A DNA stretch of 12,144 nt. Origin: Candidatus Thorarchaeota archaeon. GTDB taxonomy: Archaea > Asgardarchaeota > Thorarchaeia > Thorarchaeales > Thorarchaeaceae. Every line of letters begins with the position of its first letter. Within the stretch, counting starts at the first letter, position 1. The notes under the pieces are model-generated. The model had not been told where the DNA came from. It made no database searches and was given only the letters and a program-made list of their open reading frames with translations. The translations under genes were made by a program, and so were the position numbers. The DNA lies in contig PRDJ01000025.1 in NCBI GenBank assembly GCA_003345555.1, positions 1-12,144 on the forward strand, in the 5' to 3' direction. Of the stretch, positions 3 through 11,857 are shown piece after piece.

Positions 3-746
3 TCAAGCTCCTTCGACTTCATTCAGTCGATTACCAAGCGGAAACTCATTGACGACCTCTTCGTGCTGAACTCGACAAGCTTGTCGTGTGCACTCGAAGC
101 AAGTCCCGCGAAGATTCAGAAAACGCGTGCCAGTTTGCCAAGTTGGATACTCACGTTGACCGTTTCGGGACACGGCATCCTAGCCACCGATGAGTTGGAG
201 TACAGATTAGCTGACACTCTTGATGTAAGCAAGGAAACTAGTGTAGAACTCATGGAGCAGATTGGTGGCGTAACCTCTGCTCGAGTTGGAGCTCTTCTTG
301 GAGTCCCAAGTGAAGAACCTTACTGGAAGCTCAGACTTCGAGGTGGATGTCAAGAAGTGTTCTTCATCACGACAATAGATCACACACCCGAGTTCTGCTC
401 AATCTTCGAGCAAACCGCGAAAGAGGAGGGCTTCCGTGACAGCGATATTGGAATCTATATACAACCGACGCTTCATGGCACGAATGCCCACTGTAATTTC
501 GACATTTACTTTGACCCAATTGACAAGGCAAGAGTAAGACTGGCACAGCGCCTATACTCTAAAGGCTGCGAAAGGCTCCTCGCAAAGGGCGCTTTCTTCA
601 GCAGGCCATGTGGCCCCGTGACTGAGGCAGTCTTCAAGAAGACGCCGCCTGAGAATGTCACTGCAATGAAGAAAGTCAAGGACATATTCGACCCGAAACA
701 TGTGCTCAATCCTGGCGCTTTGTGCTTTGAGGAGGCTAAGAAATGA
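3..746 (+). CDS. FAD-linked oxidoreductase (VAO/PCMH/GlcD superfamily), C-terminal part only; 5'-truncated by the window edge
   Basis: The frame is open from base 3 (SSSFDFIQSITKRKLIDDLFVLNST...), so the GTG at 63 is internal. The C-terminus AMKKVKDIFDPKHVLNPG matches the FAD-oxidase_C terminal motif (KxxFDPxxxLNPG), preceded by GAFFSRPCG. The stop overlaps the next start (ATGA at 743-746). Confidence 0.85.
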   Translation, partial: SSSFDFIQSITKRKLIDDLFVLNSTSLSCALEASPAKIQKTRASLPSWILTLTVSGHGILATDELEYRLADTLDVSKETSVELMEQIGGVTSARVGALLGVPSEEPYWKLRLRGGCQEVFFITTIDHTPEFCSIFEQTAKEEGFRDSDIGIYIQPTLHGTNAHCNFDIYFDPIDKARVRLAQRLYSKGCERLLAKGAFFSRPCGPVTEAVFKKTPPENVTAMKKVKDIFDPKHVLNPGALCFEEAKK

Positions 747-2014
747 CACTTGCTGATTACCAACAAATGATGGACCGCTGTGTCCGCTGTTCCAAGTGCA
801 AATTCCTTGATGGCATTCTAGTCAAGAGCAAGCAGTACTCCACCATTTGCCCATCGATTGAAAGGTACAATCTGCACGCCTACTCCGGAGGCGGCAGAGT
901 CATCATGGCCAACGCGATCCAGCGAGGCAGGGCGAAGTTCAGTGATGAGATGCTTGATGCTCTCTACAGGTGCACCAACTGCGGCGCCTGTGAGGTGGCC
1001 TGTAAGATGTACTACGACATCGAGCCGAACGAAGTCATCCATGAACTCAGAGTTGCGGCTGTCGAATCCGGAGTCGGACCGATGCCGAAGCACAAGAAGT
1101 ACATCGACTTGGTAGAAAGGACTCACAATCCGTATGGTGAGTCGCCCATGAACCGAGAGGCATGGCTGCCAGACGGCGTCCGGGTTGACGAACGCTCAGA
1201 CACTATCTACTGGGTTGGTTGCACGGCGGCCTTGCGGCGACAGGAGATTGCCCAAGCCACTGCACGAATCCTGAACGCTGCTCATGAGCCATTTGCCTTG
1301 CTAGGCTCAGACGAGTATTGCTGTGGAAGCCCTGTGTATCGCGTTGGTGACAGAAGCCGGGCCATTGAAATCATGAAGGAGAATGTTGAGAGATTCAAGC
1401 AGCATGGCGTGAAAAGGATCATCACCAGCTGTGCCGGCTGCTACAACATGTTGAAGGTCGAGTACCCTCGCTTTGTTGACCTAGACATCGAAGTGGTCCA
1501 CATATCACAACTGATGGAATCGCTTCTGGCAGATGGCAAGCTTAGGCTGACAAGAGAGGTCCCTATGAAAGTCACTTATCATGACCCGTGTCACCTCGGT
1601 AGGATGGCAGAGCCATATGAGAAATGGGAAGGACAAATGGTCGAGGTCCTTGCACTTGTCTACATGGCAGATCCCCCAAAACCGGTCAGGACTGGGGGGC
1701 ACGGAGTATATGATGCTCCCAGAAATGTACTCAAACAAATCCCCGGCGTTGAGCTCGTGGAGATGGAGCGAATCCGGGAGTATGCGTATTGCTGCGGAGC
1801 AGGCGGAGGTGTGAAAGCCGCCTACCCGGACTTTGCAGTCTGGACTGCAAAGAACAGAATGGAAGAGGCTGAATCAACCGGGGCGCAGGCACTCGTTTCA
1901 TGTTGCCCATTCTGCTCCACCAACTTCCACGATGGAATCGAAGAGCGAGGAAGTCAAATGGAGTATTATGACCTCACAGAGCTAGTGGCAAAAAGCATCG
2001 GAGGCGACGAGTAG
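743..2014 (+). CDS. Fe-S oxidoreductase of the GlpC/GlcF/HdrD type (two 4Fe-4S motifs plus two CCG domains)
   Basis: Ferredoxin-type motifs are CVRCSKC...CP and CTNCGACEVAC. CCG domain 1 has YWVGC/EYCCG/TSCAGC and CCG domain 2 has YHDPCHLGR/YCCGAGGG/SCCPFC. SD GGAGG at 731-735 lies 7 nt before the ATG. Confidence 0.93.
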   Translation: MTLADYQQMMDRCVRCSKCKFLDGILVKSKQYSTICPSIERYNLHAYSGGGRVIMANAIQRGRAKFSDEMLDALYRCTNCGACEVACKMYYDIEPNEVIHELRVAAVESGVGPMPKHKKYIDLVERTHNPYGESPMNREAWLPDGVRVDERSDTIYWVGCTAALRRQEIAQATARILNAAHEPFALLGSDEYCCGSPVYRVGDRSRAIEIMKENVERFKQHGVKRIITSCAGCYNMLKVEYPRFVDLDIEVVHISQLMESLLADGKLRLTREVPMKVTYHDPCHLGRMAEPYEKWEGQMVEVLALVYMADPPKPVRTGGHGVYDAPRNVLKQIPGVELVEMERIREYAYCCGAGGGVKAAYPDFAVWTAKNRMEEAESTGAQALVSCCPFCSTNFHDGIEERGSQMEYYDLTELVAKSIGGDE

Positions 2015-3604
2015 GTGCTCGAGGATAAAATCTATGCTGCACTGAAGAATATCGTAGGCCCTGAGAACATCAGTAGAGACCCAGCGATTCTTGAGACCTA
2101 TGCATACCAGTGGTGCAATGAAGTTGACAATACGCTCAAGGGCAGGGAGCCCTCAAGATTCGGACAGAGACCAGAGGCGGTCGTATTGCCCGGCTCAGCC
2201 GAAGAGGTGCAGGCGATTGTCAGACTCTGCAATGAACACGACATCAAGTTCAAGGCCCTGAGCACTGGTCAAGGAGCATGGGCAGGCGTTACTGTCCCAA
2301 GGGCCATCCAGATTGATCTGAGAAGAATGAACAGAATTCTGGAGATTAACGTTCAGAACAGGTATGCTGTAATCGAACCCTATGTGACCAACGCTCAGCT
2401 ACAGGCTGAACTCGTGAAGCACGGTCTCATTCACAATGCTCAGGGTGGCGGACCGCAGACTTCTCCTCTTGCTAGTCACACTTCATTTGTAGGTCCAAGC
2501 TTCACTTCATCTCATACTGGTTTCAGCGGACGGAATCTGTTGGGCGCCGAGTGGGTTCTTCCAACAGGCGACATTGTGCGAGTAGGTTCATTCAATTACA
2601 GCGGCGAATGGTTCTCTGGAGATGGACCTGCATTCTCACTCAGAGGTGTGTTCAGAGGAGGCTATGGTGCATACGGAGGCCTAGGTGTATTCACCCAATG
2701 CGCCATCAGGTTGTTCTCTCTGCCCATTCCGAAGGACTGGAAGTGGGAAATCAAAGGCACGGTTCCTGACTACGAGTGGAACCTGCCGCCATACTGGAAG
2801 ATGTTCGTTCTGAACTTCGCCGACTGGGACACTTTCACTGAAGCGTTCTATGAGGTCAATGACCAAGACATGAGCATGATGGCCATGGCGTCTTCCGCAG
2901 AGGGACTTGCGACCATGTTCACGAACACTAGAGAAGCCGCACTTGAAGCCATATTCGCTGGCTTGCTCGTGAAGACCCAGAGATACTTCGTCGTGATGGT
3001 CACGGCTCACACTGAACGCGAATTCGATTACAGAACCAAGTTCCTTCAGGCGATACTCAAGAAGTACGGCGGACAGGACCTGATTGAGGAAGGAGTGGTG
3101 ACCGCTCAGCCAATGCACTACGCCGAAGGTCTGCGGAACAGCCTCGGCAACCATGCGTTCCGATTCACCAGTTGCTTCCAGAGCACGCATGGGGGCCTAG
3201 ACACAATCGCAATGAGCGTCAAGATAGGAATCGTCAATCAGCCAATCAAACAGAAGTACATAGAGAAGCACGTCATCGGCGACGATCGTGGAGAAGGAAT
3301 TTGGATAACTGGGTATGAGGGTGGACACATGGCCCACTTGGAAGTTCCGACTGTGTACGATCCTTCTTCGCCCGAATCCTGTCGGGGCTACGCCTATTAC
3401 CAGGATGAGTGCAACAAGGCGGACATCTCGAACGCACTTGGAATTCCATTCTTCATAGTGGGTGATGCATTTCACGACTCATACGGGCCGAATGTAATGG
3501 ACTATCCCCGTTGGCTTCGCAAGATCAAGGCTGCATTCGACCCGAAAGGAGTCTCGGACCCGGGCCATTATGTCTCCTCAAAGCCACGCGAAGGTTCGAC
3601 CTGA
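2015..3604 (+). CDS. FAD-binding oxidoreductase (FAD_binding_4 / PCMH-type), substrate unknown
   Basis: The N-terminus has LKNIVGPENIS...RPEAVVLPGSAEEVQAIVRLCNE...STGQG...IQIDLRRMNRILEIN...IEPYVT and NLLGAEWVLPTGDIVRVGS. The C-terminus has LRKIKAAFDPKGVSDPG. The GTG start directly follows the upstream TAG, with SD GGAGG at 2000-2004. Confidence 0.9.
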   Translation: MLEDKIYAALKNIVGPENISRDPAILETYAYQWCNEVDNTLKGREPSRFGQRPEAVVLPGSAEEVQAIVRLCNEHDIKFKALSTGQGAWAGVTVPRAIQIDLRRMNRILEINVQNRYAVIEPYVTNAQLQAELVKHGLIHNAQGGGPQTSPLASHTSFVGPSFTSSHTGFSGRNLLGAEWVLPTGDIVRVGSFNYSGEWFSGDGPAFSLRGVFRGGYGAYGGLGVFTQCAIRLFSLPIPKDWKWEIKGTVPDYEWNLPPYWKMFVLNFADWDTFTEAFYEVNDQDMSMMAMASSAEGLATMFTNTREAALEAIFAGLLVKTQRYFVVMVTAHTEREFDYRTKFLQAILKKYGGQDLIEEGVVTAQPMHYAEGLRNSLGNHAFRFTSCFQSTHGGLDTIAMSVKIGIVNQPIKQKYIEKHVIGDDRGEGIWITGYEGGHMAHLEVPTVYDPSSPESCRGYAYYQDECNKADISNALGIPFFIVGDAFHDSYGPNVMDYPRWLRKIKAAFDPKGVSDPGHYVSSKPREGST

Positions 3605-8230: not shown

Positions 8231-8351
8231 CTATCTTACCTCGTTTTCGGTAATCGTCTCATCAATCCTCATTGGTCGTTCCCTGCGGTGCGATATCCGG
8301 TACAAACCCTAAAAGCGTACATATCTAATGTTTTGCATAGCACGAGAGGGC

Positions 8352-9227
8352 ATGAGATTGCGTAGCGTAGAGATAATTACAACAAAGAGCCCATACTCCG
8401 GAGGAGAATCGGTTGAAGGCCTAGTCATTGTCAGATGCAGCAGGGATTTCAAGTACAATGCAATCCATCTGACATTCGCTGGTCGAGAGCGAACAGAGAT
8501 TGTAGTCAGCGCCGGCGAGTATTCGACCACCTACAAAGATGAACGAGTGTACTTCACGACTAGGCAGCGTTTCGGCGGCGAAGGCGTCATTCCAGCCGGA
8601 GAAACTCGTTTCCCTTTTGCTTTCACTCTGCCAGAGAACATCCTCAGCAGCTATTCGGGCAAATGCGGATGGGTTGAGTACACGCTGAGGGCAGTTGTCG
8701 AAATCTCAAAGGCCATCGATCTCAAGAAGCAGATTGCGATTCGAGTGAAACAACCGACGAAGGAAGCTACATCTCAATCACAAACCGAGTCAGTAGAAAG
8801 AGATGGTCGCTCCATACTCGACGCAGAGATTCATGACGATTGCGTGTGTTTGGGTGATCCTGTCATTGTTAGATTCAGGGTATCCGAGGACCTGAAGATG
8901 CGGGGAATTCGTGTAGAGCTGAGGACAGAAGAGGATGCTATTGCGAAACGGCAGAAGAGCACGAAGACACGGACTCTTGTCAGCCTCGCCATTCCGCAAA
9001 GCGAGCTTGCGAGAGACCTCTGGACAGAACTGGAACTCAAGACCAACGATTCGATGCCATTAAGCTTCGAAGGACAGATTGTAAGTAACAGGTCATCTGT
9101 GAAATTGACGCTCGACATTCCCTGGGCACGAGACAAGTGGATTGTCATGCCTGTTAAACTGGGATACTATGCACCCCTTTCTGAAAGGGATACGACGACA
9201 TCAGATTTCCAATGGAGACTCAAGTGA
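8352..9227 (+). CDS. Arrestin-fold protein (Arrestin_N plus Arrestin_C-like tandem beta-sandwiches; arrestin/Vps26 clan)
   Basis: The N-domain pattern YSGGESVEGLVIV...IHLTFAGRERT...IPAGETRFPFAFTLPENILSSYSGKCGWVEYTLRAVVEISKAIDLK matches the alpha-arrestin pattern. A second beta-rich domain LGDPVIVRF...GIRVEL...MPLSFEGQIV...KLTLDIPWARD repeats the same fold pattern. ATG 8328 and TTG 8358 are alternative starts. Confidence 0.82.
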   Translation: MRLRSVEIITTKSPYSGGESVEGLVIVRCSRDFKYNAIHLTFAGRERTEIVVSAGEYSTTYKDERVYFTTRQRFGGEGVIPAGETRFPFAFTLPENILSSYSGKCGWVEYTLRAVVEISKAIDLKKQIAIRVKQPTKEATSQSQTESVERDGRSILDAEIHDDCVCLGDPVIVRFRVSEDLKMRGIRVELRTEEDAIAKRQKSTKTRTLVSLAIPQSELARDLWTELELKTNDSMPLSFEGQIVSNRSSVKLTLDIPWARDKWIVMPVKLGYYAPLSERDTTTSDFQWRLK

Positions 9228-9307: not shown

Positions 9308-10450
9308 CTAAGAGACTTGTTTTTCTTTCTCAATCTCGCGGATGCGTTTCTCCCGAGCGGCTTCAGCGTTCTTGATACGTTTTTTCTGATCCTCAATACG
9401 TTTCTCGGCATCGTCCACTTCCTTGTCTCTTCGGCTCTTTGCCTTGCGGTATTCCTTGTCAGCACCGCTCCACTCGTCCTTGGCGCGTCGGAGGTCATCG
9501 TCGAGATTCTCGGCCCGCGTCTTCTTGGCCTCTGCAACTGCACGATATCGCTCGACTTCGTCATCTAGAGTTGAACGGGTGGTCTCCATTTCTGTTTCGA
9601 GTTGGTGCAACTGCTGGCCGAAATGCGCCAGGTCGGATTCAATCTCCCTGATCCTACTATCGTCAGGGTATTTCGAACGGGAAATGGGTGTCTCAATCTG
9701 AGCCGGACGCATCGGTGGCCGCTGTATTGGTGCCGCCGCTGGACCTACGGTTGGAGAGACGCGAGGTACTACTTCTGGAGCGTTTCTTACCGAGGGCTTG
9801 CTCAGACCCGGAGGTTCGGCCTCGCTACCGGAGGACTCACTTCTGCGGATGGCAGGTCCCACAGCGGGAGAGACACCAGAGAGAGGCCTTTGCGCCATGC
9901 TTGGCCCCGAATCTCCCACCTTTGCGCCCCCAGGTCTTGATCCAATCGGGATGGTTGTTTGTTCAGTCTGTCTAACCGTCTTGGCCGAAGGCGTCACCGG
10001 AGGTTCTGCAGACTGCGGCACCCTCGGCGGAGCAGATGCTGGCAACTCAGGAGCGGCAGATACTTTCGCCATTAGCTCCTTCACCTCACTTGCTCTCATC
10101 ATGCGGCTCTCAACATCAGATTTGTCCGCTACAGCGAATGCTTCTCGGGCCTTCTCAAGTTCCGTCTTTTCTGTATGACGTTGGCCTGTTCTCAGGCGGT
10201 CTCGCTCGACCGAACTGGGACGTACCCACTTGTCTCCGGTTGATACGCTCGGCTTCTCTGGCGGCGCAGGGCCATTAGTGGTGTGGGATTTCTGTGCAAG
10301 AGGATGACCGACGGCAGTCCTAGTCTCTGGAGCTGGAGCAGGCGCCATCTGCTTGGGCGCCTCGGTCTTCATGAGCAAAGAGGACCCACAACGGATACAG
10401 AACTTGCGCGTAGGCTGATTGACCTTGCCACACTTGGCACAAGTTATCAA
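9308..10450 (-). CDS. Zinc-ribbon / Pro-rich disordered linker / C-terminal coiled-coil protein, function unknown
   Basis: The N-terminus is CAKCGKVNQPTRKFCIRCG (CxxC-x10-CxxC), followed by a P/A/S-rich middle and ~118 aa of charged heptad-like sequence (9308-9664). The SD-like GGAGTGAT (10464-10457) favours TTG 10450 (MITCAKC) or TTG 10456; the ORF track starts at ATG 10495. Confidence 0.8.
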   Translation of the reverse strand: MITCAKCGKVNQPTRKFCIRCGSSLLMKTEAPKQMAPAPAPETRTAVGHPLAQKSHTTNGPAPPEKPSVSTGDKWVRPSSVERDRLRTGQRHTEKTELEKAREAFAVADKSDVESRMMRASEVKELMAKVSAAPELPASAPPRVPQSAEPPVTPSAKTVRQTEQTTIPIGSRPGGAKVGDSGPSMAQRPLSGVSPAVGPAIRRSESSGSEAEPPGLSKPSVRNAPEVVPRVSPTVGPAAAPIQRPPMRPAQIETPISRSKYPDDSRIREIESDLAHFGQQLHQLETEMETTRSTLDDEVERYRAVAEAKKTRAENLDDDLRRAKDEWSGADKEYRKAKSRRDKEVDDAEKRIEDQKKRIKNAEAAREKRIREIEKEKQVS

Positions 10451-10592
10451 TGGCAAATCACTCCAGGAATTGTGGAACTGTGTATTAATGCTCATAATTG
10501 CTCATATGCCTTTGGCTCCTCTCTGCGCAGAAATCCCGCATTTACGACAAGAGAAGACTTGGTATAAGGAATCAAAGGCGCGTCGGATGCAC

Positions 10593-11813
10593 TTACGGTT
10601 CTGACTCTGAGGAAGACGGCACAGCTTTGCCCTGTTCTTCTATGTGCGTAGCCGACAGAACAGCTGTAGCCAACGCCTGAAGAGTGACGACAGACAGAAA
10701 TATTGTAATGAACGGAGCATTGAAATCGAGAAACATTCCAAACATGGCTCCACTGATCAGGAACCCAATACCATATGCCGTGTTGAAAATGCCATAAGCT
10801 CTTCCTCTGGACTGGATTGGGGCGAACTTCACGACCGCAGCACGGTAAGTCGATTCCTGCATGCCAAGCACTAATCCAAAGAAGACTGCGGAGTAAATGA
10901 TGAACTCCAAACTGACAGCAAGAGACAGATACAGAGCAGGGATTATTGACAGAATGAACGGTATGGCCATGAGCCTCACTCCGTACCTATCGAACGCGTA
11001 TCCCGCTACAGGAGCGACGACGGCATCCGCACCCTGGATTATGACAAAGACAATCGGCACAAACCACTCCAGGTTCTCTGGCTGGAGCAGAACCGAGGCT
11101 CGGAACAGAATAAGTGCAGCCGGAATGAGACCAATCGTGTTCAGAAACACTGCGAAAGTATACACATAGAAGGGCCTTCGAAGCTTTGTATGCTCTTGGT
11201 CGACTGCCTCAGTTCTTCTTACTCCGACAACGCCCACCTTCCTCCTTGTTATGCCTAGTGCAAGGACAAGTAGGAGAAAAGGCAAGAATAGAAAGAGAAA
11301 GCTCACTTGGTAGTTATTCAGAGTATAGAACATCAAGCCCGCCACGAGAAGGGGTCCTACGACTGCACCCACTTGGTCTAGCAGCTCATGCAACCCGAAT
11401 GCTCTGCCTGCGCCGACACCTTTGCTTACAATAGACAGGACAGCATCCCTTGAAGGCGCCCTGAGTCCCTTGCCAAGTCTTTCAAGTAGCACGAAGACGA
11501 CTGCGATCTCCCAGGTCCATGCAAAACCCAGAAGCGGAATAGCCACGATCAGTCCGTACCCAAGAAATATGAAGGACCAATATGCCCGTGTCCTGTCAGC
11601 AGCCTCTCCGCTGCCCAGTCTAATGACATAACCCAGAAACTCGCCGAGTCCACTAGCGACACCCACAACAAACGCGCTCGCACCCAAATAATACAAATAA
11701 TCCGGTACCAGCCCGCGAGCACCCTCGTAGACCGTATCACCCATCATGCTCACGAAACCTAGAAGGATGATACTAGTGTAGGCTGCCCTTGAGCTGATGT
11801 GTCCTTTCTCCAT
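10593..11813 (-). CDS. Major facilitator superfamily (MFS) transporter, substrate unknown
   Basis: There are about 12 hydrophobic segments in two halves. Motif A-like sequences are SGEAADRT and AGYAFDRYG, and family motifs include GDTVYEGARG, ERLGKGLRAPSRD, GRAFGLHELLDQVGAVVGP and RGRAYGIFN. ATG 11813 is preferred; ATG 11846 is an alternative. Confidence 0.92.
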   Translation of the reverse strand: MEKGHISSRAAYTSIILLGFVSMMGDTVYEGARGLVPDYLYYLGASAFVVGVASGLGEFLGYVIRLGSGEAADRTRAYWSFIFLGYGLIVAIPLLGFAWTWEIAVVFVLLERLGKGLRAPSRDAVLSIVSKGVGAGRAFGLHELLDQVGAVVGPLLVAGLMFYTLNNYQVSFLFLFLPFLLLVLALGITRRKVGVVGVRRTEAVDQEHTKLRRPFYVYTFAVFLNTIGLIPAALILFRASVLLQPENLEWFVPIVFVIIQGADAVVAPVAGYAFDRYGVRLMAIPFILSIIPALYLSLAVSLEFIIYSAVFFGLVLGMQESTYRAAVVKFAPIQSRGRAYGIFNTAYGIGFLISGAMFGMFLDFNAPFITIFLSVVTLQALATAVLSATHIEEQGKAVPSSSESEP

Positions 11814-11842
11814 ACAAACGCGAGGCCAGCTAAATGCCTTGT

Positions 11843-11857
11843 TCATATATTTGTATA
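11843..11857 (-). promoter_or_regulatory. AT-rich TATA-like element upstream of the MFS gene
   Basis: The minus strand reads TATACAAATATATGA about 30-45 nt upstream of ATG 11813, the most AT-rich patch in this intergenic region. Confidence 0.35.

Follow-up and report, generated by a model that had tools for sequence, protein, structure and literature searches.

Among the core components of eukaryotic endocytosis and endosomal recycling are the arrestin and Vps26 folds. That Asgard archaea have them too contributes to the case that the building blocks of trafficking are older than eukaryotes. Here we consider one such protein, P0001, encoded at positions 8352-9227 of an entire 12,144-bp contig (G000:C25, hereafter the window) from a 2.28-Mb, 93% complete Thorarchaeota genome. 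Arrestin-domain proteins of Asgard archaea are already published as eukaryotic signature proteins (ESPs), and the family is therefore not new. Genes for N- and C-terminal arrestin domains were described in Lokiarchaeote CR-4 by Zaremba-Niedzwiedzka et al., 2017 (cited after bioRxiv 10.1101/2021.04.02.438162). Eme et al., 2023 (PMC10307638) list in their ESP tables proteins with Arrestin_N (PF00339) and Arrestin_C (PF02752) domains, Thorarchaeia included, and describe Vps26 homologues as sparse. The clan that unites these folds was defined as Spo0M, arrestin and Vps26 (Alvarez, 2008). In the literature available to us, no study addressed the function of an Asgard arrestin.

P0001 is almost certainly a eukaryote-type two-lobed arrestin of the Asgard ESP family, residing in a Thorarchaeota genome. 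The gene and the parts of its product are laid out as follows.

8299..8316, forward strand: conserved upstream box, GGTACAAACC-C-TAAAAGC, a candidate archaeal B recognition element (BRE)/TATA element about 42 nt before the ATG
8344..8350, forward strand: Shine-Dalgarno (SD)-like GAGAGGG, 1 nt before the start codon, read from the sequence
8352..9227, forward strand: complete coding sequence of the arrestin-fold protein P0001, 291 residues plus stop, from the open frame, the Pfam Arrestin_N match and the homologue alignment
8358..8747, forward strand: N-lobe beta-sandwich, residues ~3-132, from the alignment-based model
8643..8669, forward strand: N-lobe signature LSSYSGKCG, residues 98-106 (S100-Y101-x-G103)
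8781..9164, forward strand: C-lobe beta-sandwich, residues ~144-271, with model strands from E144 to E271 at a predicted local distance difference test (pLDDT) score of ~98
9057..9083, forward strand: C-lobe signature PLSFEGQIV, residues 236-244 (P236-x-S-F-x-G)
9168..9224, forward strand: short, low-confidence, S/T-rich C-terminal tail, residues 273-291 (pLDDT 58-76)

Profile and structure searches agree on this assignment. Arrestin_N is the top Pfam match of P0001 (residues 10-132; E 1.9e-21; 77 bits at a cut-off of 24.9), as it is for the published Asgard ESPs of the same phylum, while neither Spo0M nor Arrestin_C matched the single sequence at E<=0.1 and no NCBIfam model matched it. Among the relatives in a 64-sequence alignment, all 64 match Arrestin_N and 61 match Arrestin_C. 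Against PDB sequences, the family profile found ARRD-6 (1.5e-24), VPS26C (4.4e-24), ARRDC3 (5e-20) and TXNIP (6e-18), and more weakly VPS26B (3e-11), beta-arrestin (4e-11) and Spo0M (1.6e-8), with the alignments to TXNIP and VPS26C spanning the full length, C-lobe included. The AlphaFold2 model built on the 64-sequence alignment (a single-sequence prediction was unusable, with a pLDDT of 34) has a pLDDT of 94.9 and a predicted template modelling (pTM) score of 0.87, and consists of two all-beta lobes followed by the low-confidence 19-residue tail. Its top Foldseek matches in the PDB are ARRD-6, yeast and human Vps26, TXNIP and VPS26C (E 1e-16 to 1e-14). P0001 is nearest to Vps26 by shape, and to the alpha-arrestins and VPS26C by sequence. 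Like other members of the arrestin clan, it is built of two curved beta-sandwich lobes that follow each other in a single chain, and it is a stand-alone, presumably cytosolic protein. An earlier note on this DNA had proposed a compact two-lobed arrestin/Vps26-clan protein of eukaryotic type rather than a Spo0M or a generic Ig-like protein, and Pfam, the confident model and the fold searches all bear this out: the best profile and structure matches are arrestins and Vps26, and neither Spo0M nor an unrelated Ig fold came first in the profile or Foldseek comparisons.

The same note had ascribed a P-x-S-[FY]-x-G signature to both lobes. Both motifs that it quoted are present, and the match is far beyond chance, but the N-lobe copy reads L-S-S-Y-S-G, without the leading P, whereas most relatives have P-x-S-Y-x-G at this place, often as PPSY. 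The family consensus of the N-lobe signature is P-x-S-Y-x-G-x-x-G, with G103 and Y110 almost invariant over the 64 sequences, and it aligns with the TXNIP segment 'SFKGKYG'; that of the C-lobe signature is P-x-x-F-x-x-x-L-I. The extent of the protein is likewise set by its relatives. Homologues align to P0001 from residue 2-3 through ~290, and an in-frame upstream ATG at 8328 would add eight residues that are common to no homologue. Because all homologues align from residue 2-3 and none has the eight extra residues, 8352 is taken as the start.

How P0001 relates to the described systems can be read from its architecture. Its genome is Asgard, Pfam assigns it best to Arrestin_N/Arrestin_C, and its C-lobe motif LKVTLDIPW-R-x-D is that of the Thorarchaeia entries in the supplementary table of Eme et al., 2023. 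The two domains of Lokiarchaeote CR-4 lie, in the account cited above, in separate genes, whereas both lobes of P0001 are joined in one 291-residue chain. P0001 is thus a clean, confidently modelled, single-chain example that adds no new ESP category. The alpha-arrestins (ARRDC1-5, TXNIP, yeast ARTs, C. elegans ARRD-6) are the best sequence-profile match to the family, they share its Arrestin_N plus Arrestin_C architecture (Arrestin_C being sub-threshold in P0001 itself) and their P-x-S-[FY]-x-G strand signatures align, but P0001 has neither their long disordered tail nor a PPxY motif. Compared with visual and beta-arrestins, it is ~70-120 residues shorter and lacks the long C-tail with clathrin/AP2 motifs. 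Judged from their positions only, the conserved E117/D123, an R-G-V-R close to residue 186 and D255/D261 are candidate members of an interdomain polar network. To our knowledge, there is no G-protein-coupled receptor (GPCR)/GPCR kinase (GRK) system in its lineage.

The family is concentrated in the lineage of P0001. Its closest named homologue, at 51% identity, is from a Candidatus Thorarchaeota metagenome-assembled genome (MAG). An exhaustive HMMER search returned 437 clusters (50% identity level) at E<=1e-3 and 92 at E<=1e-10, most with 270-330 residues; those with a name come from Thorarchaeota or Promethearchaeota ('arrestin family protein'), and the search also returned isolated proteins from Thermoplasmata and Thermoproteota MAGs and, at about 1e-10, ARRDC3-like proteins of animals. 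An identical copy of P0001 is encoded on a 103-kb contig of another assembly. A scan with P0001 alone gave three related loci. The family profile, run across 301 genomes of the phylum, matches 64 of the 76 genomes of P0001's own GTDB family and 28 of 224 in other Asgard families. Copy number in the own family is usually 1-4, often in tandem, and the own genome has three loci: P0001, a full-length paralogue on contig C57 (28% identity) and an N-lobe-only gene on contig C1. A maximum-likelihood tree of 30 Thorarchaeial copies resolves two main, old clades of paralogues in the GTDB family of P0001. Clade A (10 rows, support 96/90) holds P0001 and its orthologues in the genomes G002, G003, G015, G008, G153, G117 and G193, of which G002 (Candidatus Thorarchaeota isolate OWC3) and G003 are of the same genus; clade B (14 rows, support 100/99) includes the C57 paralogue. 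Four longer arrestin-family genes (ORFs of 375-466 residues) cluster on an 11-kb stretch of a complete genome from another Asgard family (G036:C1:2020284-2031511) and form a separate expansion with C-terminal extensions.

What sets many of these proteins apart is the end of the chain. The tail of P0001 is S/T-rich and without PPxY, just as the earlier note had it, and the compact archaeal relatives likewise have no PPxY in their tails. The only P-P-S-Y of the compact family is the one that some relatives have as part of the N-lobe strand signature, and PPxY in a tail is found only in distant, longer matches, at least one of them from an insect. Nor does the 19-residue tail of P0001 contain a LIEF-type box; it ends S-D-F-Q-W-R-L-K, with F286 and W288 at 9207-9215. 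The conserved C-lobe aspartate D261 is retained in 124 family members, and 70 of these have tails of 8-40 residues. The tail is net acidic in 46 of these 70, and 50 of them carry F or W in the last eight residues, compared with 38+-3 in within-tail shuffles (maximum 49 in 2000), a count taken over related, non-independent sequences. F and W together make up 15.4% of the last eight residues, 3.9% of the rest of the tail and 5.4% of the folded body, and typical endings are D-F-D-F, F-G-D-F, G-F-T-F, G-F-E-F, F-D-F-G-W-T-F and D-F-S-W. This acidic-aromatic pattern recurs in clades A and B and could serve as a docking motif in the many members that have it, while some relatives end instead in a C-terminal zinc ribbon or a TPR-like extension.

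The second pattern concerns ubiquitin. Pfam found no ubiquitin-conjugating enzyme (E2; UQ_con, PF00179) in the own genome. The same search matched 108 of 125 Asgard genomes of other families, which serve as its positive control, versus 1 of 26 (a weak match, 3e-5) in the own GTDB family. The distribution of the arrestin family is opposite, since it is commonest in the Asgard family without a detected canonical ubiquitin E2; this inverse pattern comes from one lineage, is not statistically independent and is correlative. Beyond the published catalogues, only the acidic-aromatic tail and the inverse E2 pattern are added here, and both are correlative.

It is possible that P0001, in the manner of eukaryotic arrestins and Vps26, serves as an adaptor or scaffold without enzymatic activity. 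The beta-sandwich lobes would be the binding site for a partner, the most plausible ones being a peptide segment or the cytosolic part of a membrane protein, and the short flexible C-terminal tail, with the aromatic ending of the family (here D-F-Q-W), might recruit a second factor or bend back onto the N-lobe and so be autoinhibitory. Such a protein would most likely recruit no ubiquitin ligase and have no retromer-type Vps35 partner, given that the lineage has no detectable machinery of either kind. We favour this mechanism tentatively, as a plausible proposal that falls somewhat short of being probable. Several points weigh against it. The adaptor role is drawn from the fold and from analogy, and a common fold is no proof of a common function. 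The tail statistic overstates the independence of the sequences behind it, the own tail is net neutral (three acidic and three basic residues) and thus has only the aromatic half of the family motif, and the C57 paralogue in the own genome is without the tail motif. Finally, WW, HECT and Vps35 (PF03635) gave no Pfam match in the own genome in searches that lacked a positive control and were made in a genome that is 93% complete.

A more elaborate scenario is that the Thorarchaeial arrestins are ubiquitin-independent sorting or signalling adaptors whose lobes bind a membrane protein and whose conserved acidic-aromatic tail is an undescribed archaeal short linear motif, recruiting a downstream machine (for example an ESCRT, Sec23/24-like or small-GTPase component) in place of PPxY or clathrin/AP2 motifs. 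In this extended form the proposal is unlikely. A binding partner, if one came to light, would for the first time offer a way into the function of an arrestin in a cell without GPCRs, clathrin or ubiquitin.

Given its shape, P0001 might instead be the Vps26 subunit of an archaeal retromer- or retriever-like cargo-selective complex, with its C-lobe seated on a Vps35-like solenoid. This role appears improbable. Pfam Vps26 scores 27.6 bits, barely above its cut-off of 27, compared with the 77 bits of Arrestin_N, so that Vps26 is not the best-scoring family, and only 19 of the 64 relatives match it. Sequence identity to Vps26A/B and VPS26C is 16-20%, the search for Vps35 in the own genome was empty (as said without a positive control, the control genomes being silent too), and P0001 has no retromer gene context, with no Vps29- or Vps35-like gene among the conserved neighbours.

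Somewhat more doubtful still is that P0001 is a prokaryotic Spo0M-type protein of the arrestin clan, that is, a regulator of stress or differentiation. In its favour, 41 of the 64 relatives match Pfam Spo0M, the C57 paralogue matches it with 27.7 bits, and relatives also occur in Thermoplasmata and Thermoproteota MAGs. However, the likeness to bacterial and archaeal Spo0M is confined to the N-lobe. P0001 itself does not match the Spo0M model, and its C-lobe is arrestin-C-like, unlike the non-arrestin C-terminal part of that family.

The alternatives that follow draw on the genes around P0001:

6695-8230, forward strand: multi-pass membrane protein of 511 residues with a soluble C-terminal half
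9308-10495, reverse strand: protein with a zinc ribbon, a long linker rich in P, A and S and a charged coiled coil at the C-terminus; its gene and the arrestin gene are convergent
10593-11846: major facilitator superfamily (MFS) transporter gene, two genes from the arrestin gene

It is very unlikely that P0001 plays the part of an alpha-arrestin (ART/ARRDC), linking a ubiquitin ligase to membrane transporters. The strongest sequence-profile matches, to ARRD-6, ARRDC3 and TXNIP, would suit this role, animal ARRDC3-like proteins are among the direct phmmer matches (~1e-10), and the MFS transporter gene is close at hand. Yet in neither G002 nor G003 does this gene accompany the orthologue, and the tail lacks the PPxY ([LP]PxY) motif by which alpha-arrestins recruit Nedd4/Rsp5-type WW-HECT ligases. 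The earlier note held that the protein predates PPxY-dependent ligase recruitment, which is a claim of evolutionary polarity; what the data do say is that recruitment through PPxY would lack a partner, since E2, HECT and WW all went undetected (HECT and WW in the own genome, without a positive control). Together with the missing motif, this makes an alpha-arrestin-style ubiquitin-ligase route unlikely. The scarcity of E2 in the own family, set against its frequency elsewhere in the phylum, points in the same direction.

A pairing of P0001 with the membrane protein encoded upstream, the latter acting as its receptor and being of a degenerate histidine-kinase-like kind, has just as little to recommend it. 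The two genes are adjacent on one strand, 121 nt apart, but the linkage is not conserved, and the pairing is largely refuted by this absence. In G003 the arrestin gene directly follows a short-chain dehydrogenase/reductase (SDR) gene, with no membrane gene between. A 62%-identical orthologue of the membrane protein exists in G002 on contig C65, while the G002 arrestin is on C126, and none was found in G001 or G003; a 29% paralogue lies on contig C69 of the own genome. The membrane protein has no HisKA or HATPase_c match in Pfam, only a weak match to MerC. It looks like a lineage-specific gene that stands between SDR and arrestin in the own genome only, and the arrestin gene has a conserved promoter-like box of its own.

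This box, of the (C/G)TAAAAG(C) type, is at 8310-8315 within GGTACAAACCCTAAAAGC, ~40-45 nt 5' of the start. A (C/G)TAAAAG-type box occurs at a similar upstream distance in eight other clade-A orthologous loci and is followed by GGAG-type boxes, which in the orthologues lie ~7-12 nt upstream of the start codons. We regard it as a putative promoter, probably the gene's own archaeal TATA/BRE with a short leader. The GGAG-type boxes of the orthologues make it plausible that the gene is SD-led, as first suggested, although its own GAGAGGG is placed only 1 nt from the ATG.

The suggestion of an operon, by contrast, did not hold. Besides the 121-nt gap upstream, the arrestin gene has a convergent gene 80 nt downstream, and none of its neighbours is conserved beyond the genus. 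Even within the genus the surroundings vary: in G002 the order is SDR, an ORF of 126 residues, arrestin and then the zinc-ribbon/coiled-coil gene, and distant clade-A orthologues adjoin TPR, APH-kinase, GNAT-SCP2 or amidohydrolase genes. With a conserved promoter-like box to itself and neighbours that change from genome to genome, the arrestin gene is probably an independent unit, transcribed alone and outside any operon. The idea of an operon or of functional neighbours was also rejected over 27 Thorarchaeial loci, where recurrent neighbours are confined to clade B. These are an EamA transporter, an M32 carboxypeptidase, a Ras-like GTPase and a thioredoxin (6-9 related loci), as well as TldD/PmbA, and their recurrence looks like local synteny that related genera have inherited. 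The family has diversified into paralogue clades without fixed gene partners.

It is hardly credible that the contig is eukaryotic contamination or mis-binned, for which nothing speaks save the eukaryote-like domain: the contig is archaeal (Asgard), with flanking CCG, FAD oxidase, M20 and SDR genes that are 80-95% identical to and syntenic with those of one same-genus genome, a second same-genus genome (G002) that is a Candidatus Thorarchaeota MAG, an intron-free ORF at 8352-9227 in a prokaryotic gene layout, its closest homologues in Thorarchaeota MAGs and a family widespread in its own GTDB family, so that this explanation is refuted, as the earlier note had anticipated.

A few observations on the surrounding genes and on related loci may be added. 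The zinc-ribbon gene accompanies the arrestin gene in G002 (54% identity) and is absent from the G003 locus; a link between the two is conceivable, as distant arrestin members carry a fused C-terminal zinc ribbon. In nine Thorarchaeial genomes, the clade-B loci L026-L044 (for example L026:3441-6864) carry an EamA transporter, an M32 carboxypeptidase and the arrestin on one strand, with a Ras-like GTPase gene near all nine and a thioredoxin gene near six of the nine. TXNIP, a eukaryotic alpha-arrestin, binds thioredoxin, but the proximity of the thioredoxin gene at these loci may be coincidental. In G003, a clade-A arrestin paralogue lies between an Arf/Ras-family small GTPase and a Roadblock/LC7 protein (L015, G003:C16, 4472-7263), flanks that are not present at the P0001 locus; the window carries no GTPase gene at all. 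At the other end of the window, positions 3-3604 of the forward strand hold a tight trio of an FAD-oxidase C-terminal fragment, a CCG/4Fe-4S protein and an FAD_binding_4 flavoprotein, 93-95% identical to G003, which belongs to ordinary redox metabolism and has no relation to the arrestin gene. The G003 orthologue of the M20 peptidase gene at 4273-5508 matches as two pieces in different frames (L013, G003:C3, 3313-4495), which points to a frameshift there or to faulty assembly of that genome.
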